Made by a program: the position numbers and the translations under genes. A model generated the notes under the pieces. It did no database searches and was not told the DNA's origin. It saw only the letters and a list, made by a program, of their open reading frames with translations. 64,000 bases of DNA, from assembly GCA_963733035.1 (NCBI GenBank), contig CAVTBU010000010.1, positions 128,001 through 192,000 of the forward strand. Direction: 5' to 3'. Below are positions 5,803-22,879 of this stretch, one piece after another. Position 1 is the stretch's first letter, and each line of letters starts with the position of its first letter. This DNA is from Pirellulales bacterium. GTDB taxonomy: Bacteria > Planctomycetota > Planctomycetia > Pirellulales > PALSA-1355.

Positions 5803-7215
5803 ATGGACACTGTCAATCAGGTGACGGCTCGCGCTGCCGAGCTGTTTAAAGCGATGAACCCCACCGCGCGGCTGCTGGCTGCGCTGTCGGCGGCTCTGAT
5901 CGTGGTGAGCCTGATCTGGCTGTTTGGCCGGCACTTGGAGCCGAGCGAAGTTTACCTGATGGGGGGCCAACCGTTTTCTCCCGCCCAGCTGCGGCACATG
6001 GAAAGCGCTCTCGGTCAGGCGGGCCTCGGCGACTATGAAGTCGAAGGTACGCGGATGCGCGTGCCGCAAGGGCAACAGGCAAAATACATGGCTGCCCTGG
6101 CCGAGGCCGGCGCGCTACCGGCCGACTTTGGCGAGTATCTGCAAAAGGCCGTCAATACCAGCAGCTTTATGCTCTCCGGCCCGCGGCAAGAGGCTCAACT
6201 CAAAGTCGCCATCCAGAGTGAATTGCAGGGGGTGATCAACAACTTCCATGGCATCGAGCGCTCGTCCGTGCAGATTGCCGAAGAGACCAGCCAGGGATTT
6301 CCCCGCACGAAAACTGTTACCGCCTCGGTCGGCGTCCAGCCCAACGGCAAGCAGAAGCTCGACGAACGAACCGTTTCGGCCATCCGTTGGATCGTGGCCA
6401 GCGCCTGGGGCGGGCTCAAGCCCGAGAGTGTGACGGTTGTCGACTGGAGCAGCTCGCGGCTGTTTGCCGGCCCGCTCGACGGCAACGGCCCGGCCGCGGG
6501 TGCCTACGCGGACAACAAGAAGCAACTCGAACTCGATTGGGAAGAGAAGATTGTCCGGTTACTCGGAATCGCCGGTGCCGTCGTTACGGCCAATGTCGAA
6601 CTGAGCGACGATGGACATGCACCGCGTCAGGTCTCGGTGTCGGTCGCCGTCCCGCAAGCCTACTTTGAAGCCGTGTGGCAAGAGCAGTACGGCGCGCCGG
6701 CCGGCAAACGACCGTTGAAGCTCGATCCGGCGGCCTTCGCCCAACTCCAACAGAGCGAGAGCGAACGAATCAAGCAGGCGATCGTCCCTCTGTTGGTGAC
6801 GGCCGATTCGGCGGTGGATCGAGATTCGCTGGTCGCCGTGAGCACGATTTACGCCGCAGCCGCGCCAGCCGCGGCACAACCCGGCTACCAACAGGTGGCA
6901 CTCGCCTGGCTGGCCGAGAACTGGCGAGCGGTCGGAGTGGGCGTTTTGATTCTGGTCGGATTGGTGATGTTGCGATCTGCGTTCGGCGCGGCCGATCCAA
7001 CGCCTGCGGTGCAAAACGAGTCGCCGGACGGCAATCAGCAGTCGCTAGTACTTGTGACGGACGATGAACACGAGCCATCGTCGACAGGCGGTGCGCCGAT
7101 TCCGCCGCCGCACATTCCTGCCGAGGCGCGGCGGGCCGAGCTGGCCGAAATGATTCGCCAGGATCCGGAGGCCGCCGCAAGCGTGCTTCGAACCTGGCTA
7201 GGCAACGCGAGCTAA
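5803..7215 (+). CDS. fliF: FliF-like MS-ring protein, internally shortened
   Basis: N-terminal TM, TASVGV...VASAWGGLKPESVTVVD RBM2 motif, C-terminal TM, terminal DPEAAASVLRTWL FliG-binding motif. Confidence 0.85.
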   Translation: MDTVNQVTARAAELFKAMNPTARLLAALSAALIVVSLIWLFGRHLEPSEVYLMGGQPFSPAQLRHMESALGQAGLGDYEVEGTRMRVPQGQQAKYMAALAEAGALPADFGEYLQKAVNTSSFMLSGPRQEAQLKVAIQSELQGVINNFHGIERSSVQIAEETSQGFPRTKTVTASVGVQPNGKQKLDERTVSAIRWIVASAWGGLKPESVTVVDWSSSRLFAGPLDGNGPAAGAYADNKKQLELDWEEKIVRLLGIAGAVVTANVELSDDGHAPRQVSVSVAVPQAYFEAVWQEQYGAPAGKRPLKLDPAAFAQLQQSESERIKQAIVPLLVTADSAVDRDSLVAVSTIYAAAAPAAAQPGYQQVALAWLAENWRAVGVGVLILVGLVMLRSAFGAADPTPAVQNESPDGNQQSLVLVTDDEHEPSSTGGAPIPPPHIPAEARRAELAEMIRQDPEAAASVLRTWLGNAS

Positions 7216-7218
7216 CCC

Positions 7219-8208
7219 ATGACGACGACAGAGCGCAACGTCCGCAAAGCGGCCATCTTGCTGGCCTGCCTCGACGACGAGCATGCTGAAACGCTGTTGC
7301 GCCAAATGTCGCCGGCGCAAGACCATGTGTTGCGTCAAGCCGTGGAACTTCTGGGCGAGATTGACCGGGCGGAACAGGAAGACGTGATCGAGGAGTTTTT
7401 CCGCGTCGGGCTCTTGATACCGGATTCTGACCTGGCCGGTATTGAACTCGATGCGCAGCTACCGCACACACTGACGCTTGGTATCACGGAGGCCAGTACG
7501 ACCGGGGCCACGCCGTTTCGCTTCCTGCATGAAGCCCCCCCGCATAAGCTCGTGCCGTTTTTGGAGCGTGAGCATCCGCAAACAGTGGCGGTTGTCGTGT
7601 CTCACCTGCCAGCCGATCGCGCCGCCGAAATCCTGGCGCATCTGCCCGGCGAGTTGCAGATCGACGTGGCCCGCCGGCTGGTCGACCTTGAGGAGACGGA
7701 TCCCGAGGTTTTGCAGGAAGTCGAACGGGGGCTTGAGTCGTGGTTGTGCTCACAAATTCACGGTGATCGTCCCAAGCGAGACGGCGTGTCGGCGCTGGCA
7801 AACATCCTGAGCGCCGCCGACCCTCAGGCACGACATCACATACTGTCGAACCTTGCCCGGCATGACCGGCGGCTGGCCGAAAAGTTGGAAGCACCGGCCG
7901 CGCCTCCGCTTTCGTTTGCGGATTTAGAGTGCATGGATTCGGCGTCGCTGGCCGTTGTTTTGCATCACGCCGAACGCGAGTTGTTGGTATTAGCTTTGGC
8001 CGGCGCCGGCCCCGAATTCTGCGAGCGAGCGCAGAGCCTGTTGGGTGGCCAGGGGATGGCGATACGACAGGCTCTACGTCATCTGGGGCCGACACGGCTC
8101 AGCGACGTCGAGGAAGCCCAGCGTCAATTGGCCGAACTGGCTCGATATCTGGAACAACGTGGCGAAATCGTGCCCGAGGTGCGTGGGCGATTGAGCCTGG
8201 CAATTTAA
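7219..8208 (+). CDS. fliG: Flagellar switch protein FliG-like
   Basis: RKAAILL N-terminus, EHPQ motif, LGPTRLSDVEEAQ. Confidence 0.9.
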   Translation: MTTTERNVRKAAILLACLDDEHAETLLRQMSPAQDHVLRQAVELLGEIDRAEQEDVIEEFFRVGLLIPDSDLAGIELDAQLPHTLTLGITEASTTGATPFRFLHEAPPHKLVPFLEREHPQTVAVVVSHLPADRAAEILAHLPGELQIDVARRLVDLEETDPEVLQEVERGLESWLCSQIHGDRPKRDGVSALANILSAADPQARHHILSNLARHDRRLAEKLEAPAAPPLSFADLECMDSASLAVVLHHAERELLVLALAGAGPEFCERAQSLLGGQGMAIRQALRHLGPTRLSDVEEAQRQLAELARYLEQRGEIVPEVRGRLSLAI

Positions 8209-8237
8209 CGCTAAACTCTTTCTTTGGTGATTGACGC

Positions 8238-8891
8238 ATGCCACGCGTACTGAAAGCTCCACCCACATCCGAGGCGATGGAGTTTTTGACATTTGCCTTT
8301 GACGACTTGGAGGAGTCGGCTCGTTCGCAACTCGAAGCGGCGCGTCGCGAAGCCGCCGAACTGCTGACCGCGGCTCGCCAGGAAGCCGAGCAATTGCGCC
8401 GACAAGCCGAGGAGGACGGTCGCGCTGCGGCCGGCCAGGCGATCGAACAAATCATTGCCGAGCGGGTTGCCACGCAAGTGGCAACGACCATGCCGGCGCT
8501 CGATCAGGCGGTTGCCGACCTGCGCGCCGCCAAAGCCGACTGTCTGGTTCGTTGGGAAGAAGCCGCGCTAGGCGTGGCCACGGCGATTGCCGCTCGCGTC
8601 ATTCGCCGTGAGGTCTCCCATTCGCCGGAAATCAGTTTGTCGCTCGTTCGTGAGTCGCTCGAACTGGCGGCCGGGAGCACCGATTTGCAGTTGCGCATGC
8701 ACCCCGACGACCTGGCAGTGCTCGGGGCGGAGGTTGAAGATCTGCTTGGTCAACTTGTGCGTAGTGGCGAGAGGGCGCTCGTGGCGGATGCCACGATCAC
8801 GCGCGGGGGCTGCCGCGTTGACACGCGTTCGGGCAGCATCGACCAGCAATTCGAGGCCCAATTGGCCCGCATCGAACAGGAACTGCGTTAG
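8238..8891 (+). CDS. fliH: FliH/SctL ATPase regulator
   Basis: Helical AxxxA repeats, MHPDD, DATITRGGCRVDTRSGSID. Confidence 0.9.
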   Translation: MPRVLKAPPTSEAMEFLTFAFDDLEESARSQLEAARREAAELLTAARQEAEQLRRQAEEDGRAAAGQAIEQIIAERVATQVATTMPALDQAVADLRAAKADCLVRWEEAALGVATAIAARVIRREVSHSPEISLSLVRESLELAAGSTDLQLRMHPDDLAVLGAEVEDLLGQLVRSGERALVADATITRGGCRVDTRSGSIDQQFEAQLARIEQELR

Positions 8892-8917
8892 TAATTCACC
8901 GCCGAGGACTTTCGCCG

Positions 8918-10243
8918 ATGCCACTGCTGCTCGACAACCTCCACGCTCGGCTGCGCGAAATGGTGCCGGCCGACTTGCGCGGCCGCATCGTGCGTACGTC
9001 GGGGTTGACGGCCGCCGTCGCCGGGTTTCCGGCACCAGTCGGATCGCTGGTAAGCATCGAGCGGCACTCGGGCGAGCCGCTATCTGCGGAAGTGATCGGG
9101 TTTGTCGATGATTTGACCCTGGTTTCGTTGCTCGACCGAGCGCAAGGTCTCAGGCACGGTGACCACGTTAGGTTGGTGAAAACCTCGCGATGGATTCGCG
9201 TCGGTGACGGATTGTTGGGCCGCGTGATCGACGCCCGCGGAAAGTGCATCGACGGTTCGCCACAGCCGGCACTCGAGCACCGCGCTCCGCTCGAGCGAAC
9301 CGCACCGTCGGCCATCTGCCGCCCGCGTATCGATGAGTCCATTTCGACGGGTGTGCGCGCGATCGACGGCTTGCTCACCTGCGGCAAAGGTCAACGGCTG
9401 GGCATCTTTGCCGGATCGGGCGTCGGCAAGAGCATGACACTCGGCATGATCGCTCGATATACGACGGCGGATGTGAACGTCGTGGCGCTCGTCGGCGAGC
9501 GCGGCCGAGAGGTGAACGAGTTCCTGCAGCGCGACCTGGGGCCTGGGCTGGCCAAGAGCGTTGTCGTGGTAGCCACCAGCGATGAACCGGCATTGGCGCG
9601 CGTGCAGGCGGCGCTGGTTGCAACCACAGTGGCCGAATTCTTTCGCGATCAGGGAAACGACGTGCTGTTGATGATGGATTCGCTCACGCGGCTGGCGCTC
9701 GCGCAACGCGAGATTGGTCTGGCCGCCGGCGAGCCGCCCACGACGCGCGGTTTCCCACCGTCGACATTCGCGCTATTGCCGCGGTTGCTCGAACGGGCCG
9801 GCCGCACGGAGCAGGGGAGTATCACCGGGCTTTACTCGGTGCTCGTCGAAGGGGACGACCCCCAGGAACCCATCGCCGACACGACGCGCGGTTTGCTCGA
9901 TGGGCACATCTGGTTGTCGCGAGCGCTGGCCGCGGCGGGGCACTATCCTGCGATCGACGTGCTGGAAAGCGTGAGCCGCTCGATGCATGACGTTGTCGAC
10001 GACGATCATCGGCAAGCCGCCCTGGAAGTCCGCCGTCTGTTGGCCACCTATCGTCAACATGAGGACCTGATCGCCGTCGGGGCTTATCGCCAGGGAACCA
10101 ACGCCAACGTCGATCGGGCGATCGCACTGCGAGACGAGATTCACACCTTGCTTCAGCAGCGCGTGGATCAGCGCGCAAGCGTGTCGCAGGCCAAGGAAGC
10201 TCTCGTTCGGCTGGCCGCCCGGGCTACGCAGGATGCGCCATGA
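8918..10243 (+). CDS. fliI: FliI/SctN export ATPase
   Basis: GQRLGIFAGSGVGKS Walker A, VGERGREV, GEPPTTRGFP, DGHIWLSR. Confidence 0.96.
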   Translation: MPLLLDNLHARLREMVPADLRGRIVRTSGLTAAVAGFPAPVGSLVSIERHSGEPLSAEVIGFVDDLTLVSLLDRAQGLRHGDHVRLVKTSRWIRVGDGLLGRVIDARGKCIDGSPQPALEHRAPLERTAPSAICRPRIDESISTGVRAIDGLLTCGKGQRLGIFAGSGVGKSMTLGMIARYTTADVNVVALVGERGREVNEFLQRDLGPGLAKSVVVVATSDEPALARVQAALVATTVAEFFRDQGNDVLLMMDSLTRLALAQREIGLAAGEPPTTRGFPPSTFALLPRLLERAGRTEQGSITGLYSVLVEGDDPQEPIADTTRGLLDGHIWLSRALAAAGHYPAIDVLESVSRSMHDVVDDDHRQAALEVRRLLATYRQHEDLIAVGAYRQGTNANVDRAIALRDEIHTLLQQRVDQRASVSQAKEALVRLAARATQDAP

Positions 10244-10710
10244 AACCGTTTGCCTTTCGTCTCGACGGCCTACTGAAATTGCGCATCGCCCAGCGCGACG
10301 TCGAGCGCGTCGACCTGGCGGCCGCACTTGCCGAGCAGGTTCGGCTGACCGCTCTGTGCCATGCGCTGCAAACGCAATTGTCGCGCCTGCTAGCCGAACA
10401 GCGTACCGCGCGGATTGCCGGTACCGTGCTGCTTGAGTCGCTGGTCCGATTAGAGCACTTCGCAGCAGCCACACGGAGTAAGCTCGCCGCGGCCAACGGA
10501 GCTCGGATCGCGGCAGAGCAGCGAGTGGCCCATTGTCAGCATGCGGTGGCAGCAGCCGAACGCGACGTTGACGTGCTCGAAAAGCTGCGCGAGCAAGCGC
10601 AGGTTCGCCATCAAAGGGAACTCGCACGCCGACAGGTCAAGCGGCTCGACGAGGTTGCCGGGCAATGTTTTGTCCGTGCGGCGGTGCGGTCATCCGGCGG
10701 ACCACGCTAG
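10240..10710 (+). CDS. fliJ: FliJ-like stalk protein
   Basis: MKPFAFRLDGLLKLR start, coiled coil, LEKLRE...LDE end; ATGA overlap with fliI. Confidence 0.8.
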   Translation: MKPFAFRLDGLLKLRIAQRDVERVDLAAALAEQVRLTALCHALQTQLSRLLAEQRTARIAGTVLLESLVRLEHFAAATRSKLAAANGARIAAEQRVAHCQHAVAAAERDVDVLEKLREQAQVRHQRELARRQVKRLDEVAGQCFVRAAVRSSGGPR

Positions 10711-10960
10711 CATCACGGTGCTGGAGCTAGTCCACTGGCCGGCGGTATTTCGCGATCTGACCTTGATCGAAAATTGCTTTTCGAGGACAAACCCGCCCGA
10801 CTCTGGCCCAGGCACATCTCGCCAGAGTTGTCGTTCGACAACACATATCCTTTTGCAAATCGTCCACGCGTATCTGGCGCATTGCCGCCGCGCGCTTTGC
10901 GGGTGATTCGATCCGCTGGCCGCACGCCGACATGTGGCAGCCGTGGCAGGATTCAATAGC

Positions 10961-11209
10961 ATGGTCGATCGCATGCCATCGCCGCGCGGCGACAGGAATT
11001 TAAGAATTGAATTGGGACGGGCGCGGCTGCCGTGGCAGGAGTTTACGAAGTTAGCCAAGGGGAGCGTGGTTTCGCTGGAGACGCTGGTGGACGAGCCCGT
11101 CGATATCGTCGTGGGTGGCCGGCTGGTGGCCAAAGGCGAGGTGCTCGTGCTTGACGGTTGCTTTTGCATTCGCGTTACGCAGTTGCTCGGTGGCAAGGGA
11201 GCCGCTTGA
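10961..11209 (+). CDS. fliN: FliN/FliM-C SpoA-domain protein
   Basis: IELGR, GSVVSL, EPVDIVVGGRLVAKGEVLV. Confidence 0.88.
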   Translation: MVDRMPSPRGDRNLRIELGRARLPWQEFTKLAKGSVVSLETLVDEPVDIVVGGRLVAKGEVLVLDGCFCIRVTQLLGGKGAA

Positions 11210-11261
11210 GCGCAAGTTCGAAGTCCGAAGGCACCCGTGGGTGCGATGAGGAGGTGGCAGG

Positions 11262-12017
11262 ATGCCACGCGTCGCAAGCTTGCTGATGTTAGGGCTGGTG
11301 CTAACGGCATTCGCAGCTGGTGGTGCCGCCGGACAGAGTCCCGCTCAAAGCGGCGGGCAGGTCCGTTGGGGCGACCGGCCGGTGAGCCCACCGCAAATCC
11401 CATGGACGGGCGGTACCGCGGTTGCCCGGCCCGTCGAACCACCGCGGCTCTTGCCCGCGGGATATCAATCGCCGCCCGGAGGGGCGAGTAATACGGCGGC
11501 ATATCGCCGCCAGGTGCGCACGGTGGGCGGTCAACAGCCGCTGCCGCTGCCGCCTCAGCCAGGCGGCGTGGCGGCGCCAGGAGCCAAACCGCAGCTGCCT
11601 CCGCTGGTCACAGGCGCGGCCAGCCTGGGCATCGTGTTAGGGCTGTTTTTATTGGTGGTGTGGAGCGTACGGCGCGGGATGCCCAGGGGCTCGGGCATAC
11701 TACCCAGCGGGGCCGTTGAAGTGCTGGGACGCGCGCCGATCGCGGGCCGACAAAACGTGCACCTGGTGCGCTGCGGCAACAAGATCGTGTTGCTGAGCAT
11801 TACGGCGACCAGTGTTGAGACGCTGACCGAGATTTCGGACCCCGACGAGGTCGATCGACTGCGCGAACTTTGTCGCCAAACTTCCGCGCCGGCCACGGCG
11901 TGGCAGCATCTGATGGGCCGACTTGGCAACCTGGGGCAAGGCGTCGACATTCAGGAAAGGCGGCCGGACCAAATCGATTTCGGCCACCTCGAAGTCGGCA
12001 CTCAAACTCGGGCTTGA
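11262..12017 (+). CDS. fliO: FliO-like export scaffold
   Basis: Pro-rich N-terminus, one TM, VEVLGRAPIAGRQNVHLVRCGNKIVLL; position between fliN and fliP. Confidence 0.78.
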   Translation: MPRVASLLMLGLVLTAFAAGGAAGQSPAQSGGQVRWGDRPVSPPQIPWTGGTAVARPVEPPRLLPAGYQSPPGGASNTAAYRRQVRTVGGQQPLPLPPQPGGVAAPGAKPQLPPLVTGAASLGIVLGLFLLVVWSVRRGMPRGSGILPSGAVEVLGRAPIAGRQNVHLVRCGNKIVLLSITATSVETLTEISDPDEVDRLRELCRQTSAPATAWQHLMGRLGNLGQGVDIQERRPDQIDFGHLEVGTQTRA

Positions 12018-12025
12018 GGAGCGGC

Positions 12026-13105
12026 ATGACCATGAGCCAATTCTTACGACCGAAGAAAAGCGGCTGGCCGTTGGCCGGCGGGCTAGTCGCGCTTTGTGTT
12101 TTCGCATTGGTGTTGTGCTGGGCGCATTGCGCGGTGCGCGCGATGCCGATGGCGCAAGAGCCTGCCGCGGTGGAAGCCCCGCCGGTGGTTGCGCCTGTGT
12201 CGACGGCGGCTGCCGCGATGCCGAGTCCGCCGGGAGTGCCACCGATCAAGCCCGTTCCGCTGGAAACGAAAACGGACCAAGCGCACGGGGGCGAATCGGA
12301 GCTGCTGTCGCCACCAGGCACCGATCTTTCGGCCCCACAACCGATTGAAAACGCCGCTCAGCTACCGACGGATCCGCCGTCCGCTCAAGATGCCCACCAA
12401 TTTTCCTTGCCGGGCGGCCTTGGCGGACCGGAGCAGTGGACGAGCCCCGAGGGAATTTCCTCGGCCCTGCAAACGCTGGCGCTGTTGACAGTCGTCAGCC
12501 TGGCACCGGCGGTGCTGATGATGACTACTTGTTTCGTGCGAATTGCCATCGTCCTGGGGCTGTTGCGACAGGCGCTTGGCACGCAGCAGCTGCCTTCGAA
12601 CCAGGTTGTGACGTCGCTGGCGCTCTTCATGTCGCTCCTGATTATGGCGCCGGTTTGGAACCAGGTTTATGAAGACGCCGTGGTGCCGTACGCCGCGCAC
12701 GAGATCTCGCTGCACCAGGCCTGGGATACGGGCATCAAGCCGGTTCGCGGATTCATGAGCGCGCAGATCGAGCGGACAGGCAATAGCGGCGACGTGTGGT
12801 TGTTCTACAAATACTTGCCGGCCGACACGCCGGCACCGTCGAGCTACAACGACGTGCCGCTGACGGTACTTATGCCGGCCTTCATGCTCAGCGAACTGAA
12901 GACGGCGTTTCTGATCGGCTTTCAGGTGTTCCTGCCGTTTCTCGTGATCGACCTGGTCGTTTCGAGCGTGACGATTTCGATGGGCATGTTCATGGTTCCG
13001 CCCGTGCTCGTCTCGTTGCCGATGAAGTTGCTGCTATTCGTACTGGTCGATGGCTGGCACCTGGTCGTGGGGATGTTGATGGATAGCTTCCAACTTGTTG
13101 CCTGA
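12026..13105 (+). CDS. fliP: Export gate protein FliP with Pro-rich N-terminal extension
   Basis: LLRQALGTQQLPSNQV, PAFMLSELKTAF, MGMFMVPP, KLLLFVLVDGW. Confidence 0.95.
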   Translation: MTMSQFLRPKKSGWPLAGGLVALCVFALVLCWAHCAVRAMPMAQEPAAVEAPPVVAPVSTAAAAMPSPPGVPPIKPVPLETKTDQAHGGESELLSPPGTDLSAPQPIENAAQLPTDPPSAQDAHQFSLPGGLGGPEQWTSPEGISSALQTLALLTVVSLAPAVLMMTTCFVRIAIVLGLLRQALGTQQLPSNQVVTSLALFMSLLIMAPVWNQVYEDAVVPYAAHEISLHQAWDTGIKPVRGFMSAQIERTGNSGDVWLFYKYLPADTPAPSSYNDVPLTVLMPAFMLSELKTAFLIGFQVFLPFLVIDLVVSSVTISMGMFMVPPVLVSLPMKLLLFVLVDGWHLVVGMLMDSFQLVA

Positions 13106-13116
13106 GGTTCGCGCGA

Positions 13117-13383
13117 ATGAATCCCCAAGATGCCGTCGATTTGGGTCGCCAGGCCACCAACATAGCCTTGATGTTGGGAGGTCCGGTGCTGCTTTCGGCG
13201 CTGGTCGTGGGACTGATCGTGGGTTTGCTACAGGCGGCCACTGGCGTGCAGGAACAAACCGTGTCGTTCGTACCCAAGCTGGTGGCCGTGGTGGTTGCAC
13301 TCAGCCTGATGCTGCCCTGGCTGATCGAGCAGATGGTGCAGTATTCGCATGACGTGATTACGAACATTCCGCTGTCGCTCTAG
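13117..13383 (+). CDS. fliQ: Export gate protein FliQ
   Basis: QAATGVQEQTVSFVPK. Confidence 0.95.
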   Translation: MNPQDAVDLGRQATNIALMLGGPVLLSALVVGLIVGLLQAATGVQEQTVSFVPKLVAVVVALSLMLPWLIEQMVQYSHDVITNIPLSL

Positions 13384-13394
13384 GTGCTGGCCCG

Positions 13395-14174: not shown

Positions 14175-14201
14175 TTTTCCAATCATCGAGAGCCGAATAC
14201 G

Positions 14202-15068: not shown

Positions 15069-15084
15069 GCGAAGCCGCGTCCGA

Positions 15085-16245
15085 TTAGCCCGCGGTTTGG
15101 GCCGGCGTGGGCTGGCAGTAGCCATAGTGACGCATGTGAGGTCCCCAGCGCTCGTCGATTTTGCTTCGCAAGTCGTCGGGAATGTCGTAGCTGCCGATGC
15201 GATAGTTCTGCCGATCTTTGAAGTATTCTTCGAGCTTGGGCCGCGCCGTCTCGAATTCGCCCAATTCCAGATGTTCGTATAAGGCCTGCATCCGGCCGAT
15301 CGGATCACGCACCAGGTCTTCGTAGCGAACCTCGAAAAACCTTGCTGGGTCCAACAACTCGCGATCGCGATCGAAGGCCTGATACATCATCTCGAAGCAG
15401 GAAAAGACATATTCTTCCAACTGATCGTGCCGGGCTTCCTGCAACGCTTCGAATTTGTAAAGCGTCTTCCAGAGCTTCACGGTCGAGCCGAAGAGCGGAT
15501 ACGGATCGCGCACGATGTGCACGAAGCGAGCATCCGGAAACAATTCGAGCAGCGTCTTGATACGCCCGGTATGTGGGGGCGACTTGAGAATGATTCGCTT
15601 GGGGCTGCGAAACGTGACGCGCTTCAAAAACCACTCGAGCCCCTGTTTCCATGCGGCGAGGTCCCGGTCGCTGAGCCCCTCGAGCGTCAGGTACTGCTGG
15701 TAGTCGGTCGACTCGTTGGGGAAGGCCATCTTCAAATACGGGGATGGCAAGCCCATGTTGCACAGCGCGAATTCGTCTTCCTGCGGCTTGTCAAAGCCGG
15801 CGGCCATGTGGTCCATCGGCCGCTTCGAAGGGAGCAGGAATTTGAACTTGGTGAGGAACCAGTCGCTGATCAGAAAATGGTTGGGCACCAGGCACTGGTA
15901 GGTCGTCGGAAACGTGTATCGCCCGTCGAGCACCATCAGCTCATGCAACAGCGTGGTGCCCGAACGCCAATGACCGACGATGAAGATCGGCGCGTCCTTG
16001 ATTTGCATCCGCTCCAGGTGCCGCTTGAGCAGGAGCTCTTGGAGCGGCTTGAGCGTGGAGTTCATCAGCGATGCGCCAGTGACCGTGGCGGCCAGCCCCC
16101 ATTTGGTCAGGCCGATCCGGAACTTGTTTCGGGCCAGTAGCCTGATCCAAGTGCCGAAGCCCATGCCGTGCCAAAAGCGGGCGTGCCAGAAGTGATAAGG
16201 GTTCACTTCGACGCGTTTCGACTTTGGATCGGCGCTGGTTGCCAT
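15085..16245 (-). CDS. Sulfotransferase family protein
   Basis: PIFIVGHWRSGTTLLH PAPS-binding motif, LKSPPH, HIVRDP, RYEDLV. Confidence 0.88.
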   Translation of the reverse strand: MATSADPKSKRVEVNPYHFWHARFWHGMGFGTWIRLLARNKFRIGLTKWGLAATVTGASLMNSTLKPLQELLLKRHLERMQIKDAPIFIVGHWRSGTTLLHELMVLDGRYTFPTTYQCLVPNHFLISDWFLTKFKFLLPSKRPMDHMAAGFDKPQEDEFALCNMGLPSPYLKMAFPNESTDYQQYLTLEGLSDRDLAAWKQGLEWFLKRVTFRSPKRIILKSPPHTGRIKTLLELFPDARFVHIVRDPYPLFGSTVKLWKTLYKFEALQEARHDQLEEYVFSCFEMMYQAFDRDRELLDPARFFEVRYEDLVRDPIGRMQALYEHLELGEFETARPKLEEYFKDRQNYRIGSYDIPDDLRSKIDERWGPHMRHYGYCQPTPAQTAG

Positions 16246-16480
16246 GAGTTTCTCCGCGGTTGCATGCCGTTCGGCACCGGCTCGTCCGTCAAAGACACGT
16301 AGTCGAGCGGTCGCCGCCGGCAAGCGCGCCGGCTCAAGGGGCGATGCGTCCTCCGCGGACCCGCGCGTCGGACCTCCGCCGTCTGCCGGATGGAATGTTG
16401 CCAGCGTCAAAGATAACAGTCTCCGTTCGAGAGGGCCACCGCCGCAGGGGCGTCTTGCCCGAGGCCGTTTTTCATCGTTT

Positions 16481-17002
16481 TTATTGCAAATCGCCCGCGC
16501 TGGCGTCGCTTCGCCGTGCCACGTGCTGCAGTGCTGCCTGCATGGCCATCATCACCTGGTGCCCTGGCTTCTTGCCGACCACCCGTTCCAGCGGTACACC
16601 CCGCGGTGAGAGGAATTGGATCGTGGGATAGCCGGTCACCTGAAATTGCCGGCAGACTTCCGGTTCGACGTCGGCATCGATCAGGACACAGACAAATTGG
16701 TTGGAAAGACTAACGACCTGCGGGTGCGTAAAGGCTTCCTCGGCCATCTGCCGGCAATACTCGCACCATTTGGCCGTGAAGTACAACAGCATGGGCTTCG
16801 ATTGCCGTACACTTTCGGCGTAGCCCTGGCGGTATCCGACGACGAACTGCAGTTCGCCGTGCGCCAAATAACTGGCTCCCACGGCGCGGCCATCTGCCGG
16901 ACGTTGTTCGACGGCGCTGTCTGGTGTCTCGACACCAAGCTCACAGCCGTACTTGAGGGCCAGCAGTGCTAGCAAACAAGCCCCGAACGCAAAGTATTTC
17001 AT
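16481..17002 (-). CDS. Exported thioredoxin-family protein
   Basis: FTAKWCEYC, GYPTI cis-Pro motif, hydrophobic N-terminus. Confidence 0.85.
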   Translation of the reverse strand: MKYFAFGACLLALLALKYGCELGVETPDSAVEQRPADGRAVGASYLAHGELQFVVGYRQGYAESVRQSKPMLLYFTAKWCEYCRQMAEEAFTHPQVVSLSNQFVCVLIDADVEPEVCRQFQVTGYPTIQFLSPRGVPLERVVGKKPGHQVMMAMQAALQHVARRSDASAGDLQ

Positions 17003-17499
17003 GATGCTTTGGGGAAATCGATAGAACGGCGGGGCACAGTGGCAAGGTGGCGTCGCGCGGCAGGTAAACGGGCGGATGACAACGAGGCGCGCACGCAACA
17101 TATCGTCGCGCCGAGAAAGTGAACTTGAGCGAGCTGCGACGATCGGTACCGAACGGCGTCCCGAATGCCGCATGATTCCCCCCTGGCTCTCATGCGGAGC
17201 CGTGTACCATTGGAAGGTGCAGCAACACGAGTTGCGTCGCAACTTCGGCGGTCTATCGATGCAATCAGGGGGTTGGTGGCTGGGCTGTCCAAACTATGAA
17301 AATCTCGCAAGGGCTATTTCCCCCAGAGGTGGGCATCGGTGCGACTGCACTTGGGCGTGCTAGCGGCCTATTTCCCGGTTCGCGTGGGCGCAAGACCGAC
17401 CTGGACACTGGCACGGGGTTTCAGTAACTTCCCGCCTCCTTTCTGCCACACGCACCTCGTCGTTCTGACAACACCGTTTACCGCCGGAATCGAATTCGG

Positions 17500-19593
17500 A
17501 TGGCTACCGCTGCCGTGCCACGCGTGCCCCGTTCGCTAGCGCAGGTGCAAGACCTCGTCTTGCCCGTCGCTGCGATTGCTAGCGTGCTGGTGATTCTGGT
17601 GCCGCTGCCGACACCGGTGATGGACTTACTGCTAGCGGCCAACATTGCAGTGGCCGTGATCGTTCTGTTGACGACGATCTACGTCCGCACGCCGCTGGAG
17701 TTCAGCGTGTTTCCGACGTTGCTTTTGGCCACCACGCTCTCGCGGTTGGTGCTCAACGTGGCCACCACGCGGCTGATTCTGAGCGACGCGGGTGATCGCG
17801 GCCTGATGGCGGCCGGCGGTGTGGTGCGCAGTTTCGGCGAGTTTGTGGCAGGCGACAAAATCGTCGTGGGGCTGGTGATCTTCGCGATTATCGTCGTGAT
17901 TCAGTTCGTGGTGATCACGAAAGGCGCCACCCGCATCAGCGAAGTTGCGGCCCGGTTTGCACTGGATGGCATGCCGGGGCGGCAAATGGCCATCGATGCG
18001 GATCTGGCGGCCGGCAACATCAGCGAGAAACAAGCCCAGACGCGTCGTCAGGAAGTGACCCAACAGGCCGACTTCTTCGGCGCCATGGACGGTGCCAGCA
18101 AATTCGTCCGCGGCGACGCAATCGCGGGCATCATCATCACGCTGATCAACATCCTGGGCGGACTGGTTATCGGCATTGTCGAATATCGGATGGGCATTGG
18201 CGAAGCCGCCGATTTGTTCACCCGCCTGACCATCGGCGATGGTTTGGTCAGTCAGATTCCCGCGTTCTTGATTTCGCTGGCTGCCGGCTTATTGGTGACG
18301 CGCAGTTCCTCGAGCGTCAACCTGCCGGTTCAATTTCTGAACCAACTGTTTTCACGCCCGCAAACGCTGGCCGTGACGGGCGTCTTTCTGGGTCTGTTAA
18401 TTTTCACGAAACTGCCGGCGGTGCCGCTGGTGGGATTGGGAGGCGGTTGTGTCGGACTGGCCATGCTACTCACCCGTCGCCAGCACGAAGCCGAAGCATT
18501 GGCCCGACAACAGGCGGCGGTGCCCCAGAAGCTGCGCGATCAGCGCGTCGAGGACTACCTGGCCGTTGACCCGATGGAAATCGAGATCGGTGCCGGCTTG
18601 ATTCGGCTGGCCGACCCGAAGCGTGGCGGAGATCTGCTCGACAGGATTCAACGTTCGCGCCAGGCGATTGCGGCCGAGATGGGGCTGATCATGCCCAAGG
18701 TTCGAATCCGCGACAATCTGCGGCTCGGCGCGCGGCAATATCGCATCAAGATCGCCGACCTGCCGGTTGCCGAAGGCGAATTGCAGCCCGCTATGTTGCT
18801 GGCCGTCGATTCCGGCAATGCCAGCGGAAACATCAGCGGACTGGCGACGCGCGATCCGGCGCACGGCATGCCCGCCACCTGGATCGAGCCGTCGGCGCGA
18901 CAACAGGCCGAGTCACAAGGCTATCACGTTGCCGAACCGATTAGCGTATTGGTTAACCACCTGACCGAGACCGTGCGGTCGCACGGCGACGAAATACTGA
19001 CGCGGGACGCGACTCGGCACCTGGTCGATGAGCTCAAGAAGACGTCGCCTACGGTGGTTGACGAGCTGATTCCCGACCAGATGAAGCTGGCCGAGGTGCA
19101 GCAGGTGTTGCAGCTCTTGCTGCGCGAGCAAGTGCCCATCCGGCAACTCGCGAGCATCCTCGAAGCGTTGGGCGAAGAGGTCTCGCGCACCAAGGATCCG
19201 ATCGCGCTTAGCGAACGAGTGCGGCACCGGCTGGCCCGGGCCATTTCGACGCGGTATCGCGACAAGCATGGACGGCTGGCCGTTGTCACGCTCGACCCGG
19301 CACTGGAGGAGCGAATTCGGGCCGCGACACAGCGCGTCGGCGGAACGCTTACGGTTTCGCTCTCACCGCAAGTCGTCGAGACTCTTTGTCAAAGGTTAGC
19401 CGGTGAGTTGGCGCGGCATGCCGGCTCCGGACGAACAGCCATCGTGTTGGTCAGCCCGGCGATACGACCGGCGCTCAAACAAATCACGATGGCCGCGCTG
19501 CCGCGTTTGGTCGTGCTGAGCTACGACGACGTGACACGCGACACGCAATTGGAATCCTTGGGATTGGTCGAATTGGAATCCGTCGACGAATGA
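17500..19593 (+). CDS. flhA: Export apparatus protein FlhA
   Basis: KGATRISEVAARFALDGMPGRQMAIDAD, FFGAMDGASKFVRGD, full cytoplasmic domain. Confidence 0.96.
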   Translation: MATAAVPRVPRSLAQVQDLVLPVAAIASVLVILVPLPTPVMDLLLAANIAVAVIVLLTTIYVRTPLEFSVFPTLLLATTLSRLVLNVATTRLILSDAGDRGLMAAGGVVRSFGEFVAGDKIVVGLVIFAIIVVIQFVVITKGATRISEVAARFALDGMPGRQMAIDADLAAGNISEKQAQTRRQEVTQQADFFGAMDGASKFVRGDAIAGIIITLINILGGLVIGIVEYRMGIGEAADLFTRLTIGDGLVSQIPAFLISLAAGLLVTRSSSSVNLPVQFLNQLFSRPQTLAVTGVFLGLLIFTKLPAVPLVGLGGGCVGLAMLLTRRQHEAEALARQQAAVPQKLRDQRVEDYLAVDPMEIEIGAGLIRLADPKRGGDLLDRIQRSRQAIAAEMGLIMPKVRIRDNLRLGARQYRIKIADLPVAEGELQPAMLLAVDSGNASGNISGLATRDPAHGMPATWIEPSARQQAESQGYHVAEPISVLVNHLTETVRSHGDEILTRDATRHLVDELKKTSPTVVDELIPDQMKLAEVQQVLQLLLREQVPIRQLASILEALGEEVSRTKDPIALSERVRHRLARAISTRYRDKHGRLAVVTLDPALEERIRAATQRVGGTLTVSLSPQVVETLCQRLAGELARHAGSGRTAIVLVSPAIRPALKQITMAALPRLVVLSYDDVTRDTQLESLGLVELESVDE

Positions 19594-19638
19594 TCGAGTT
19601 GTGTTAACCACTAGCGGAAAGCCGCAGGCGGCTTCGCC

Positions 19639-20775
19639 ATGAACGTCAAGACTTATCGCGCCAAAACGATGCAGGAAGCACTGGCCCTGGTGCGCAACGA
19701 CCTGGGGTCCAAAGCCTCCGTATTGCGCACTCGCGAGATTCGTCCGCGGGGCCTGTCGCGTTTGTGGAGCGCGGTTGGCATGATCGAAGTCGTTGCCTCG
19801 GCGAATGTGTCCGTACCGAGTCGACTGCCAAGCCGGCAGCCAATTATGTCGCCCGTTGCCGTGCCGGCAACACACGCGGGCCTGGATCTTTCGGCGGCAT
19901 CTTCGGAAGTGCGATTGCCACAAGGTTCTGCGGCACGTTCGGGCGGAGACAAGCACGAGCCGTTGGGCGTCCTCTCGCAGGTTCTGGCCGAGCTGCTGGC
20001 CACGGGACTCGACGAGTCTTATGCCCGAGAGCTGATCACGCGCGTTCGTCGTTTGCACGGCGAAGCGATGGTGGCCGACTCGGCAACGATGCGGCAGTTG
20101 TTGGCTGCCGCCATTGAAAAGGAGATTCGGGTCGCGGGCCCGATCTCGACGACGCCCGGGCAGAGACGTTTGGTGGCTCTGGTTGGCCCAACCGGCGTGG
20201 GCAAGACGACGACGCTGGCCAAGTTGGCGGCACACTATCGGGTGTTTGAGAATCGCCGCATCGGTTTGATCACCTGCGACACGTATCGCGTGGCCGCCGT
20301 CGAGCAACTGCGGACGTATGCCGACATTATCGACGTGCCGCTGGAAATCGCCTCCACGCCGCGTGAAGTCAAACAGGCCGTGGCGCGGATGTCGGACGTT
20401 GACCTGGTGCTGATGGATACCGCCGGTCGCAGTCCGCACGACGCGGCAAGAATTCAGCAGCTCAACCTACTCCTGTCCGAGGCAGCGCCCGACGAAGTTC
20501 ACCTGGTCCTTTCCAGCGCGGCTAATGCGGACGGCCTATGCGAGACGATCGAACGATTCGCACCTGCTCGTACGACCGCGCTGCTGCTAACCAAACTGGA
20601 CGAAGTCGCATCGTTGGGAAGCGTGTTCAACGTAATTCGACGTCGGCACATACCGCTTAGCTACCTGACGTATGGTCAGGACGTGCCGGCCGATATTGTC
20701 GTGGCCGATCCCGCACCGCTGGCGCGGGCGGTGGTCGGATTGGTCCGGCTGGCCGGACATCAACCTCCCCGTTAG
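19639..20775 (+). CDS. flhF: SRP-family GTPase FlhF
   Basis: KTYRAKTMQEAL, GPTGVGKTT, DTYRVAA, DTAGR, TKLDE, GQDVP. Confidence 0.93.
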   Translation: MNVKTYRAKTMQEALALVRNDLGSKASVLRTREIRPRGLSRLWSAVGMIEVVASANVSVPSRLPSRQPIMSPVAVPATHAGLDLSAASSEVRLPQGSAARSGGDKHEPLGVLSQVLAELLATGLDESYARELITRVRRLHGEAMVADSATMRQLLAAAIEKEIRVAGPISTTPGQRRLVALVGPTGVGKTTTLAKLAAHYRVFENRRIGLITCDTYRVAAVEQLRTYADIIDVPLEIASTPREVKQAVARMSDVDLVLMDTAGRSPHDAARIQQLNLLLSEAAPDEVHLVLSSAANADGLCETIERFAPARTTALLLTKLDEVASLGSVFNVIRRRHIPLSYLTYGQDVPADIVVADPAPLARAVVGLVRLAGHQPPR

Positions 20776-20784
20776 CACAAAACT

Positions 20785-21618
20785 ATGTTTCGCGATCAAG
20801 CCACCGAACTCCGAGAACTAGTTCAGCACCGCACGCCCGCGGGCGGTGCCTCAGGAGAGATTGCGCCGCTGGTCGTGGTCGGCGGTGGAAAAGGGGGCGT
20901 CGGAACGACAACCATCGCGGTGAATCTGGCGGTTGCTCTTGCGCGCGAAGGACGCCGCGCCGTGTTGGTCGATGCCGACCTGGAGCACGGCGGGCAAATA
21001 CACTTCACGTCTCAGCGCGACCCGGGCAACATCCTGGACGTGCTCAGCGGACGGCGCGGCTTGCACGAAGTCCTCGCGCGCGGACCAGCGGGCGTGCAAG
21101 CGGTGACGGGCGCCTGGTCCGCAACCGAACCCAACGCGTGCTCCGCCGCGCGGCAGGCCAGATTCGTCGATCAACTCAAGTCGCTCGCGCCGCACGCAGA
21201 AGTGATTGTGGTCGACGCCGGCAACAGCCGCACGCCGTTTGTGCGCTTGTTCTGGCACGCGGCCGATGTGATTTGGGCGGTGACCACGCCCGAAGATGCC
21301 GCGGTTTTGCAATGCTACGCGGCCATCAAGGCCAATTTAGCCGGATGCAGTCGGCCGCCGCTACAAACGCTGGTCAATCGAATCGACGAACGGCTGGCTG
21401 GCGACGTGCACGCGCGGCTGGCCGAGGCCTGTCACCGATTTCTCGCCGTGCGCGTCGACGATGCTGGTAGCGCCGCAGTTTGCGAGCCGCGGGACGAGGT
21501 CTTATTTCACACCGGCTCGTTGGCGGAGCATGCCTTCGACCGTGCGGCCGAACGGTTATGGGCTTACCTGCAACGGGGTGACCGCGGCCTGTTGGACCGC
21601 GATCGGGGAGTTGCGTGA
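20785..21618 (+). CDS. flhG: FlhG/FleN MinD-like protein with altered Walker A
   Basis: DQA N-terminal motif, GKGGVGTTT, LVDADL; position between flhF and fliA. Confidence 0.8.
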   Translation: MFRDQATELRELVQHRTPAGGASGEIAPLVVVGGGKGGVGTTTIAVNLAVALAREGRRAVLVDADLEHGGQIHFTSQRDPGNILDVLSGRRGLHEVLARGPAGVQAVTGAWSATEPNACSAARQARFVDQLKSLAPHAEVIVVDAGNSRTPFVRLFWHAADVIWAVTTPEDAAVLQCYAAIKANLAGCSRPPLQTLVNRIDERLAGDVHARLAEACHRFLAVRVDDAGSAAVCEPRDEVLFHTGSLAEHAFDRAAERLWAYLQRGDRGLLDRDRGVA

Positions 21619-21718
21619 GGCGCTAGCGGTGCTGTCCAAACGATCAAAAATGTTCATGCGTAGCGCATGAGAAACTGACACAGAAATCCCGAGGAATCGT
21701 ACGAAGCACGAAATAAAC

Positions 21719-21746
21719 TCAATCCCGGGCTTTGGCTGGCCGATAA
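21719..21746 (+). promoter_or_regulatory. Candidate sigma-28 promoter upstream of fliA
   Basis: TCAA-N16-GCCGATAA with a perfect -10 box. Confidence 0.55.
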
Positions 21747-22087
21747 CAACGGACACCTCTTTCAGCCGCGCCGTCCGATAAACTTTGACGACTGCGGTGA
21801 GTTTAACGCGAAAGTGAGCGAGGTCTTCGTGAATCGCCAGCGAGGCACATCGAGTCGTCAGACCGCCCCAGGCGCCCTCGGAAGACTCTACGGCAAAGCC
21901 GGAATCGAGTTTCAGCATCCGCCGAAACGGCATGCGGCGCTATTTTGTTCTTTCGCTGCCAGAGTGAGCGGACTCTGGTGCAAACCATAACCCGGGCAGC
22001 GTTTCGCCCCGGCCAGGATGGCCGCGAAACGACGGCCCAACGACGACACTCTACGCACAAAACGCCAGACGCGAGTAATCACGGAGG

Positions 22088-22879
22088 ATGGTAATGGCGA
22101 TGACCACGATGGCGCCCGAGGACGTGGCGCAGATTTGGCAACAGTTCAAGCAGGATATGGAGAACCAGGAGCTCCGTAACCGGCTGGTGGAAATCTATCT
22201 GCCGCTGGTCAAGTACAACGGCGAGCGGATCTGGTCGCGGTTGCCTGAGGGCGTGGAACTGGACGACCTGATTTCGGCCGGTGTGTTCGGCCTGATGGAC
22301 GCCATCGACGCCTTCGATCTATCGCGCGGCGTCAAGTTCGAAACCTATTGCGTGCCGCGGATCCGCGGTGCCATGCTCGACGAACTGCGGACGATGGACT
22401 GGGTGCCGCGTCTGGTCCGCTCGAAAGCCAGCAAGCTCAACGAGGCAATCAAGACGCAGGAAGCCCGTCTGGGCCGCGCTCCCAGCGAAATCGAGTTGGC
22501 CGAGCACATGGGCATCTCGGTTCCTGAGCTCGAAAAGATGGTGATGGAGGCCAACGCCGTCAACCTGATCAGCCTGAACAAGAAGTGGTATGAGACCGAC
22601 AGCTACAAGGACGTTCGCGAGATCGACATCCTCGAGGACAAAAAGGGAGAAGATCCGACGCGACGGATCCAGAAGCACGACCTGATGCGGCTGGTTACCA
22701 AAGGGCTCAACCGCAACGAACGGCTGATTATCATCCTCTACTACTACGAAGAGCTGACGATGAAAGAGATCGGCGCCACGCTCGATCTCTCGGAAAGCCG
22801 CGTCAGCCAGATGCACAGCTCGATCGTCCAGCGTCTGCAAGGCCAACTCCGTCGGCGCAGGCCGGAGTTTGGAACCTAG
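22088..22879 (+). CDS. fliA: FliA/WhiG family sigma factor
   Basis: DDLISAGVFGL, KFETY, RIRGAMLDELR, DWVPR, LSESRVSQ. Confidence 0.95.
   Translation: MVMAMTTMAPEDVAQIWQQFKQDMENQELRNRLVEIYLPLVKYNGERIWSRLPEGVELDDLISAGVFGLMDAIDAFDLSRGVKFETYCVPRIRGAMLDELRTMDWVPRLVRSKASKLNEAIKTQEARLGRAPSEIELAEHMGISVPELEKMVMEANAVNLISLNKKWYETDSYKDVREIDILEDKKGEDPTRRIQKHDLMRLVTKGLNRNERLIIILYYYEELTMKEIGATLDLSESRVSQMHSSIVQRLQGQLRRRRPEFGT

Follow-up and report, generated by a model that had tools for sequence, protein, structure and literature searches.

A flagellar export gate kept without rod, hook, filament or stator genes in Pirellulales, and its possible role in the control of FliA by FlgM

The window analysed here is a stretch of 64,000 nucleotides from contig CAVTBU010000010.1 (positions 128,001 to 192,000, forward strand) of a Pirellulales bacterium, phylum Planctomycetota. 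It carries, between positions 5803 and 22879, a cluster of flagellar-type genes encoding an export apparatus and the sigma-28-type factor FliA. Every shaft, hook, filament and stator gene has been lost in the lineage of this genome (G000 in what follows, the other G numbers being relatives compared with it), while the export machine and a sigma/anti-sigma pair have been kept. An earlier note made from the letters of the window had proposed a flagellum-derived, non-motile machine for secretion or signalling at this place. The cluster genes were assigned by Pfam profiles on the open reading frames (ORFs) of the window; lengths are in amino acids (aa).

5803–7215, plus strand: fliF, 470 aa, matching Pfam YscJ_FliF only, with no YscJ_FliF_C
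7219–8208, plus strand: fliG-like paralogue of the cluster, in which Pfam recognises N, M and C domains, FliG_C 53.6 bits
8238–8891, plus strand: fliH (Pfam FliH)
8918–10243, plus strand: fliI, the export ATPase (Pfam ATP-synt_ab and T3SS_ATPase_C)
10240–10710, plus strand: fliJ (Pfam FliJ)
10934–11209, plus strand: fliN, 91 aa, SPOA domain only (Pfam FliMN_C)
11262–12017, plus strand: fliO (Pfam FliO)
12026–13105, plus strand: fliP (Pfam FliP), with a probable start at an ATG past the fliO stop
13117–13383, plus strand: fliQ (Pfam Bac_export_3)
13395–14174, plus strand: fliR (Pfam Bac_export_1)
14202–15068, plus strand: flhB, 288 aa, matching profile positions 2–239 of 335, transmembrane domain and linker only
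17500–19593, plus strand: flhA, full length including the cytoplasmic domain (Pfam FHIPEP, 802 bits, positions 2–656 of 657)
19639–20775, plus strand: flhF, full at 378 aa (Pfam SRP54)
20785–21618, plus strand: flhG, a MinD/ParA-type ATPase (Pfam), after flhF as in relatives
22088–22879, plus strand: fliA, sigma-28 type (Pfam sigma-70 regions 2, 3 and 4)
15085–16410, minus strand: sulfotransferase (Pfam), outside the machine, between flhB and flhA
16481–17242, minus strand: thioredoxin-like gene (Pfam), outside the machine, between flhB and flhA

All the genes that had been named from the letters alone, namely fliF-G-H-I-J, fliN-O-P-Q-R, flhB, flhA-F-G and fliA, were recovered by Pfam on the plus strand. 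The five members of the export-gate set (FliP, FliQ, FliR, FlhA and the membrane domain of FlhB) score well above the Pfam cut-offs, the ATPase complex of FliH, FliI and FliJ is complete, and the CORE set (FliO, FliP, FliQ, FliR, FlhB, FlhA) is entirely present. FliI carries the GSGVGKS, ERGREV and LLMMDS motifs (Walker and catalytic), and the description of the ATPase, FliPQR and FlhA as intact holds. The cluster is not uninterrupted, as had been stated, because the two minus-strand genes split flhB from flhA; the same pair occupies the same place in flagellated relatives (G004, G019 and others). Pfam detects no flagellar gene upstream of fliF in the window, in agreement with the reported lack of flgBC and fliE there, and the gap between fliJ and fliN, put earlier at about 250 base pairs (bp), measures 223 bp.

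In G004, a flagellated member of the same family, the order reads flgB-flgC-fliE-fliF-G-H-I-J-orf-fliK-flgD-flgE-motA-motB-fliL-fliN-O-P-Q-R-flhB-[sulfotransferase, thioredoxin]-flhA-F-G-orf-fliA, with an flhB of 361 aa, and a second locus carries flgF-G-A-H-I-(J)-K-L. It had been proposed that the interval between fliJ and fliN commonly holds fliK-flgD-flgE-motAB-fliL-fliM, which this order bears out for every gene but fliM, a separate gene in Pirellulales. Judged by gene order, the differences from flagellated relatives appear as clean deletions. Since its gene order follows that of the flagellar operon in flagellated kin, the cluster was not placed in the injectisome lineage. No gene for a secretin, a needle or an SctD-type ring was found in the cluster or the rest of the window, to which the search for secretin and needle genes was confined.

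The missing parts were sought through the whole genome, which measures 6.65 megabases in 10 contigs and is 92.3% complete, with profiles at E values up to 0.1 (0.001 for PF00460) and with tblastn at E ≤ 1e-3, the queries being proteins of G004. PF00460 (rod N-terminal domain, a short profile of 31 positions), PF06429 (rod/hook C-terminal domain), PF02049 (FliE) and PF00669 (flagellin, E ≤ 0.1) gave no match in G000, nor did tblastn detect there FlgB, FlgC, FliE, FliK, FlgD, FlgE, MotA, MotB, FliL, FlgF, FlgG, FlgA, FlgH, FlgI, FlgK or FlgL. The same queries matched FliF at 44% identity, FliG at 45%, FliI at 66%, FliP at 73%, FliR at 49%, FlhB at 47% (residues 4–237 only), FlhA at 72%, FlhG at 47% and FliA at 85%. 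The late chaperone FliS is present in the flagellated G004 and G019 and was not found in G000, G001 or G016. Rod matches are likewise missing from all four genomes of the genus, and the three congeners that are 97–100% complete have no flagellin match either. The conclusion already drawn from the letters, that this is not a motility organelle, agrees with these absences. A full rod, hook, flagellin and stator set elsewhere in the genome, in combination with the same shortened FliF, FliG and FlhB in motile relatives, and a ratio of nonsynonymous to synonymous substitutions (dN/dS) near 1, had been named beforehand as observations that would speak against a repurposed machine; both were looked for, and neither was found.

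Two genes of the system lie elsewhere in G000. A FliM of 331 aa with FliM and FliMN_C domains is encoded at G000:C5 and scores 45 bits, compared with about 205–225 bits in flagellated genomes. The anti-sigma factor FlgM is encoded at G000:C7 (39.7 bits, above the cut-off), and hence FliA and FlgM are both encoded in this genome. With a FliG-like protein and FliN in the cluster and a full FliM at a distance, the earlier statement that the switch parts had been stripped must be withdrawn.

Five proteins of the MotA_ExbB family occur in G000, none of which matches the MotA of G004. The window itself holds, at 48343–49674 (minus strand), a 443-aa protein of the MotA/TolQ/ExbB family without a tblastn match to the flagellar MotA of G004, followed by two large ORFs without a Pfam match (46220–48346 and 45217–46194, both minus strand). 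As for chemotaxis, no gene with a CheW domain was found in G000, G001, G016, G004 or G019, two of which are flagellated, and flagellated members of the family may swim without the classical chemotaxis pathway.

The proteins that remain have been trimmed at particular places. The FlhB of G000, the sole FlhB match in the genome, ends just past the QGDPQ..ARRR motif, and lacks both the autocleavage site and the cytoplasmic C-domain. In alignment with full-length relatives it falls about 20–25 residues short of the cleavage position, and no second FlhB piece was found in the genome; the loss of the C-domain claimed in the earlier note is therefore real. Among the rodless genomes of the order, 14 encode the membrane part of FlhB only, and 5 more are ambiguous because of contig ends or frameshifts. 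All truncated FlhBs stop right after the conserved linker motif and continue into short tails unrelated to each other. The protein-atlas clusters closest to the FlhB of G000 are likewise short FlhBs (248–261 aa, 50–134 members, most commonly from Planctomycetota). The autocleavage motif is an intact TNPTEL in all 16 flagellated genomes compared. In every one of the 11 rodless genomes with a full-length FlhB it is destroyed, reading NPAE, SPEG (twice), D-KA, DSSR, NSAG, TSAD, APTG, GRAD, NQAE or DAEG; G020, in which no single alignment covers the site, was left out of this count.

A corresponding loss affects FliF. The beta-collar of FliF, formed in Salmonella by residues 271–381 between the ring-building motifs RBM3a and RBM3b, "accommodates the proximal rod" (PMC11739650). 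The FliF of G000 has RBM1, RBM2, the S-ring domain and conserved C-terminal FliG-binding helices, and no beta-collar; its alignment to the solved Vibrio FliF skips approximately residues 302–415. The collar segment measures 80–88 aa in all 10 flagellated genomes compared. In nine rodless genomes with full-length FlhB it measures 84, 82, 81, 67, 65, 33, 23, 18 and 6 aa, and in eight with truncated FlhB 0, 0 and 0 (G000, G001 and G016), 6, 8 and 17 aa, with two outliers of 75 and 89 aa that lack the conserved motifs. The loss of the collar in the window is thus as had been claimed, and the differing segment sizes indicate several independent deletions.

An AlphaFold2 model of this FliF, of moderate confidence (alignment of 8 sequences, mean predicted local distance difference test score 67.3, predicted template modelling score 0.30), joins strands 260–267 and 274–284 by a 6-residue loop in an S-ring-type domain, and the top Foldseek matches of the model are FliF structures, with a template modelling score of 0.92 for RBM2. 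For the FliF of G039 alone, no solved structure was matched by sequence. The collar, the FlhB switch and FliS were lost in step, and the losses follow functional domain boundaries.

The case of FliG differs from what had been supposed. The flagellated genomes of the order encode two FliG proteins, a stand-alone canonical one and a divergent copy after fliF. The canonical FliG (FliG_C 139–155 bits) occurs in 30 of 31 flagellated genomes (loci L105–L134), and the cluster copy scores 29–76 bits (L031:7417-8460, L135–L149). No canonical FliG reaching 139 bits turned up among the 30 rodless genomes, of which G005 and G027 retain a weaker canonical copy (109–117 bits) and the others have the cluster copy only. 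In an alignment of 27 canonical sequences, 16 cluster sequences from flagellated genomes and 13 from rodless genomes, the charged C-terminal helix of the cluster FliG is kept with and without a flagellum (consensus LGPtRLsDvE.AQ..LA..A..Le.rGeI). The protein of the window has the helix LGPTRLSDVEEAQRQLAELARYLEQRGEIV, like the cluster copy of flagellated relatives, so that the supposed loss of torque charges concerns a paralogue and was misread. Comparison of the sequences indicates that the canonical, presumably rotor-forming FliG was lost together with the stator, and that the retained paralogue was already divergent in flagellated kin. FliG paralogues are known from spirochetes.

Other components have been reduced to different degrees. 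FliN is reduced here to the SPOA domain (82–91 aa), whereas the two flagellated genomes measured have proteins of 180 and 199 aa, a weak trend given this number. In G037 (L062) the frame holding the SPOA domain of FliN is 478 aa long and may be a fusion with another protein. FlhF is cut to its first ~100 aa, without a GTPase domain, in G001, G002, G003 and G007 (L046–L049). The most reduced genomes, G035 and G046, have no FliM match, and no separate FliG, FliH, FliI, FliJ, FliN, FlhF or FlhG in the loci examined. They keep a short FliF, FliO/P/Q (G035 also FliR), an FlhB without C-domain and FlhA, with FliA beside flhA and FlgM 2–3 kilobases (kb) away. In G035 the N-terminal half of FliF is fused to FliG M/C-like domains (L064:4865-6763), and in G056 (L212, an 818-aa ORF) a FliG_C match lies in an 827-aa frame continuous with FliF; both lineages are strongly reduced.

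The condition of G000 is widespread in its order. Among 61 genomes of the order, G000 included, a rod-profile match was obtained in 31 (21 of the 42 high-quality genomes), a flagellin match in 28, FlhA in 60, FliM in 59 and FlgM in 58. FlhA is present in 29 of the 30 genomes without a rod match, the lone exception being 74% complete; FlgM is present in 28 of these 30, and flagellin in none. The gate, FliF, FliA and FlgM survive throughout the rodless genomes, down to the most reduced. The deleted layout, in which fliF comes first and fliN follows directly on fliJ, was seen on 20-kb gene maps of G001, G003, G009, G013, G014 and G016, in other families (G039 and G059) and, as far as contigs extend, in the rodless members of genus g3; G019, a flagellated member of g3, still has motA-motB-fliL before fliN. 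None of the rodless loci mapped has an added gene in the cluster.

Outside the order the outcome is usually different. A sample of 151 genomes of the phylum, each at least 90% complete, comprises 82 with both FlhA and rod, 3 with rod only, 58 with neither, and 8 with FlhA and no rod (G000, G063, four of family f69, G171 and G201). Flagellum loss elsewhere in the phylum hence usually takes the gate too, and in the order of G000 almost never does. The four f69 genomes (G105, G141, G173 and G187) have a divergent FlhA (663–713 bits), no rod match and no detectable FlgM. G053, at 99% completeness, matches the rod profile only three times and flagellin not at all (E ≤ 1e-5), and may represent another intermediate state.

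In an FlhA gene tree of 43 rows (short IQ-TREE search, support from the SH-like approximate likelihood ratio test only, midpoint root), the rodless genomes of the family fall together in a single well-supported clade, at whose base the flagellated G019 sits in a polytomy. On this tree rod loss needs 3 changes, of which at least 2 are forced by well-supported branches, and FlhB truncation needs 4 changes, of which at least 2 are forced; the rodless branches of G046, G035 and G057 are very long and their placement is unsafe. Taxonomic codes suggest one further loss within g3. Repeated independent events are also indicated by the variation in collar deletion sizes, in the 10 different broken cleavage motifs and in the FlhB tails.

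The retained cluster genes are under purifying selection. Nei-Gojobori dN/dS values were calculated between G001 and G003, both of which are rodless, so that the whole path between them is rodless. The ratios are 0.02 for FliA, 0.07 for FliQ, 0.076 for FlhA, 0.08 for FliP, 0.085 for FliR, 0.09 for FliI, 0.096 for FlhB, 0.11 for FliN, 0.14 for FliO, 0.16 for FliG, 0.17 for FliH, 0.22 for FlhG, 0.225 for FliF, 0.31 for the FlhF remnant and 0.44 for FliJ. The neighbouring sulfotransferase, thioredoxin and major facilitator superfamily genes give 0.066, 0.068 and 0.134. The ratios are, if anything, too high, since dS is about 1–1.5 and near saturation. Comparisons of G000 with G001, G016 and G009 give 0.04–0.41. 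Reading frames remain open across genera that are only 40–75% identical, and when scaled to FlhA divergence, the rates of the cluster FliG and of the membrane part of FlhB are no higher in rodless lines than in a comparison of two flagellated genomes.

FliA is the most conserved gene of the set (92–95% identical across genera of the family). A close homologue occurs in 134 of the 151 genomes of the phylum sample, some with 2–4 copies, and in 50 of the 58 genomes without FlhA and rod (e.g., at 74% identity in G165). This distribution suggests a flagellum-independent role of FliA in the phylum. FlgM, however, is above the cut-off in just 3 of those 58 genomes, all marginal at 25–27 bits, which indicates that FlgM is lost when the gate is lost while FliA stays. 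The N-terminal 20 residues of FlgM (MQI[Y/H]GPSQ.HGAQ) show equal conservation in genomes with and without a flagellum. About 140 nucleotides upstream of the flgM start, a motif GAACAAGCGAATCAGAACTG(T/C)CCGA is conserved in flagellated and rodless genomes of the family (L066, L155–L162, L168, L169), and may be a promoter. A 28-mer common to G013 and G016 was set aside, as it has no counterpart in G000.

The remaining genes of the window are housekeeping genes. A 192-aa ORF before fliF (5246–5824) was rejected as a gene, being Arg-rich, without a Pfam match and with dN/dS of 0.47–0.59; its seeming conservation comes from a small basic ORF on the opposite strand. This very basic ORF of ~32 aa (MAKPHRKLKKANHGKRP..., window ~5413–5511, minus strand) lies antisense to it and is apparently conserved in G001 and G003.

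Taken together, the machine is probably now a switch for gene regulation rather than part of a motor. The explanation that we favour, though tentatively, is that of a rodless FlgM exporter held constitutively in late mode, or of an FlhA-bound sink for FlgM, which gates FliA and is kept because FlgM and the gate are locked together. The collarless FliF would form an MS ring unable to hold a rod, on which the cluster FliG paralogue, FliN and the distantly encoded FliM would build a C-ring-like platform. FliH, FliI and FliJ would act as the ATPase complex, and FliO, FliP, FliQ, FliR, FlhA and the C-domain-less FlhB as the export gate, with FlgM as the remaining substrate. Without rod, hook, FliK and the inhibitory FlhB C-domain, the gate would stay permanently in late mode and would move FlgM through the inner membrane to the periplasm, or would at the least capture it at FlhA. 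Removal of FlgM would free FliA, which would be active beyond the flagellum in this phylum. Finally, as long as FlgM exists only the gate could free FliA, and the gate could not be lost before FlgM. Such a lock-in would be consistent with the co-retention of FlgM and the gate; export of FlgM by the apparatus is also suggested by the conserved FlgM N-terminus and by a precedent in Salmonella.

A Salmonella strain from which all rod and hook genes had been removed was put under selection for periplasmic FlgM-Bla exported by the type III secretion apparatus. The mutations obtained lay only in the C-terminal cleaved domain of FlhB, and many were stops or frameshifts, one at residue 258 (2026, PMC13344023). 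Export of FlgM-Bla did not require FliK, and the authors concluded that the FlhB C-domain is an inhibitor which keeps the apparatus in early mode (PMC13344023).

On this basis a history can be sketched, which we regard as possible and hold with some reserve, in which a checkpoint outlived its organelle. The export base would have survived as a secretion-gated transcription switch, as a result of the flagellum-independent, possibly developmental, targets that FliA would have acquired in these budding bacteria and of the exit of FlgM solely through the gate. It would then have been trimmed domain by domain, several times independently, losing the FlhB switch domain, the FliF collar, the FliN N-terminus and the canonical FliG, with the ATPase and the C ring gone as well in some lines. 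If true, nature has here repeated the first step that was once suggested to have led to the injectisome, and the natural genotype is exactly what the Salmonella selection for FlgM export yields.

Several observations weigh against an FlgM exporter. The Salmonella effect also required the loss of Flk and over-expression of basal-body genes, and the non-cleaving FlhB variant N269A cannot switch to late mode (PMC13344023). On the Salmonella model, no FlgM export is expected in the 11 rodless genomes whose FlhB C-domain is present but uncleavable, unless it has already lost its activity. The four f69 genomes have FlhA but neither a rod match nor a detectable FlgM, and FliA as such needs no gate, since its homologue is found in 50 of the 58 gateless genomes. 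A bare FlgM exporter has no obvious need for FliG, FliM, FliN, FliH, FliI, FliJ, FlhF and FlhG, yet most lineages keep them constrained. In addition, a flagellin promoter consensus (CCTAAAG-N15-NNCGAT(A/G), derived from 9 of 16 flagellin upstream regions) is no more frequent genome-wide than its reversed-pattern control in any of the 61 genomes, and G000 has 3 strict sites against about 2 expected, from which a FliA regulon cannot be deduced.

One alternative is a general inner-membrane exporter of one or more non-flagellar proteins into the large planctomycete periplasm, with FlgM and FliA only regulating it. The ATPase complex, the cytoplasmic domain of FlhA and the C-ring docking parts are intact and constrained, family f69 keeps FlhA where FlgM is undetectable, and non-flagellated Lysobacter enzymogenes secretes non-flagellar proteins through leftover flagellar export genes (PMC7688988). 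However, no candidate substrate or chaperone was found and FliS is gone, the cluster has gained no gene in any rodless locus mapped, and the FlhB C-domain, docking site of early-type substrates, is lost. Moreover, in contrast to Lysobacter with its rod, hook and L/P rings, G000 has no conduit through the peptidoglycan and the outer membrane, and a general exporter appears rather unlikely.

A structural platform that does not export, serving as a polar landmark, as a base for membrane remodelling like the CORE in nanotubes, or as a cell-cycle or polarity scaffold placed by FlhF/FlhG, is improbable. In its favour, the CORE (FliO, FliP, FliQ, FliR, FlhB, FlhA) was reported to be necessary for nanotubes and genomes with the CORE only are described in Myxococci, Chloracidobacterium and Succinatimonas (PMC6456723), and the minimal sets of G035 and G046 come near it. 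Polar placement nevertheless seems dispensable, since FlhF is reduced to ~100 aa in G001, G002, G003 and G007 and neither FlhF nor FlhG was found beside flhA in G035 and G046, and the tight co-occurrence of FlgM and the gate is left unexplained.

Slow decay of a functionless relic, caught at different stages in each lineage, is disfavoured and very improbable. It would accommodate the graded series from the cleavage motif through the FlhB C-domain and collar and then FlhF to the C ring and ATPase, the drop in FliM score between flagellated genomes and G000, and the frequent complete loss elsewhere in the phylum (58 of 151). Against it stand dN/dS values far under 1 for all genes (0.02–0.44) at a dS of about 1–1.5, frames open across genera that have diverged widely, the unaccelerated FliG and FlhB membrane part, losses at domain boundaries, and FlhA in all but one of the order's rodless genomes. 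True decay looks different: G161, which is 99% complete and has six rod-profile matches, carries a decayed flhA with 17 stop codons in its best match (G161:C1:618126-620040). The earlier note had rejected random decay, and these data bear it out.

A hidden flagellum, with axial and stator genes too divergent to detect or lying in unassembled parts, is scarcely credible, for although the genome is incomplete, in 10 contigs, and the rod profile just 31 positions long, the rod, rod C-terminal, flagellin and FliE profiles and tblastn with 17 axial, stator and ring proteins are all negative where retained genes match at 44–85%, three nearly complete congeners agree, synteny points to clean deletions, and the collar, the FlhB switch and FliS went in step.

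A repurposed inner-membrane machine for export or signalling is hence the best reading, as proposed in the earlier note, whose interpretation is supported although its observations stand in part only, the FliG argument being wrong and FliM and FlgM lying elsewhere. Nothing points to secretion across the outer membrane.

These genomes amount to an experiment, repeated by nature, that separates the parts of the flagellar base needed for export from those needed for rod and motor. Once no axial substrates remain, and only then, the C-domain of FlhB, its cleavage motif and the FliF collar can be spared; the gate, the cytoplasmic domain of FlhA and the link between FliF and FliG, even fused into one protein in two lineages, cannot. 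The model of the FlhB C-domain as an inhibitor, whose removal opens late-type export, becomes testable outside enterobacteria. Living relatives also display next to one another the sort of intermediate that has been postulated to link flagellum and injectisome, in which motility parts are lost and the export core is kept, and the data point to a flagellum-independent role of sigma-28 in Planctomycetota, which may bear on the dimorphic life cycle.

Reduced flagellum-derived export sets in non-flagellated bacteria are already known (PMC3459982, PMC6456723, PMC7688988). What is new is their spread through a planctomycete order with flagellated sisters, the repeated, domain-precise trimming of the FlhB C-domain or motif and of the FliF collar, the loss of one of two FliG paralogues, the natural FliF-FliG fusions and the co-retention of FlgM and the gate. 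The pattern was not found described for Planctomycetota in the literature on loss and retention of flagellar genes, a search that left subscription journals and supplements outside its scope, where presence/absence tables might show it. In a 2025 review of the phylum the string "flagell" never occurs, and in a 2026 preprint on the ancestral flagellum "Planctomyc" never occurs. The hat-shaped structure (10.1101/2021.09.03.458937) is not built of FliF or gate proteins and was set aside.

Among known systems, the reduced type III systems of Myxococcales (Abby and Rocha 2012, PMC3459982) similarly lack motility parts, have long conserved their sequence and gene order and have been argued to be functional; the same study reports a flagellar origin for partial loci in 59 of 61 replicons with partial sets. 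However, the Myxococcales loci belong to a non-flagellar type III secretion lineage (PMC3459982), whereas the present cluster is an in-place remnant of the genome's own flagellar operon with undeleted flagellated sisters, and the genome, unlike those loci, keeps FliA, FlgM, FlhF, FlhG, FliO, FliG and FliM. The CORE of Bacillus subtilis, a proposed nanotube platform (PMC6456723), resembles it in that the gate is kept where most flagellar genes are gone. Compared with CORE-only genomes, G000 also has rings, the ATPase, FlhF, FlhG, FliA and FlgM, and its FlhB is without C-domain. Lysobacter enzymogenes OH11 is likewise non-flagellated, and keeps and expresses flagellar export genes in a role other than motility; it retains hook, rod, L ring, P ring and hook cap, that is, an envelope channel (PMC7688988), none of which was found in G000.

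In Helicobacter pylori, control of sigma-28 by FlgM depends on FlhA, as would be the case here (Rust et al. 2009, via the review PMC6978683), and FlgM is described as predominantly cytoplasmic (PMC6978683), which would correspond to a non-secretory version of the switch. H. pylori is fully flagellated, unlike the present organism. Buchnera, a non-motile bacterium, has flagellar basal bodies without a filament, thought to be transporters, and keeps rod, hook and ring genes, which were not found in G000.

A close parallel is offered by the Salmonella flhB C-domain mutants (PMC13344023), which share the absence of rod, hook and FliK function and an FlhB cut shortly before the autocleavage site, and in which FlgM reaches the periplasm and sigma-28 is active. 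Those mutants are laboratory products that need the loss of Flk and over-expression, whereas the genotype described here occurs in nature, has become fixed in many species and is held by purifying selection, with FlgM as its presumed export.

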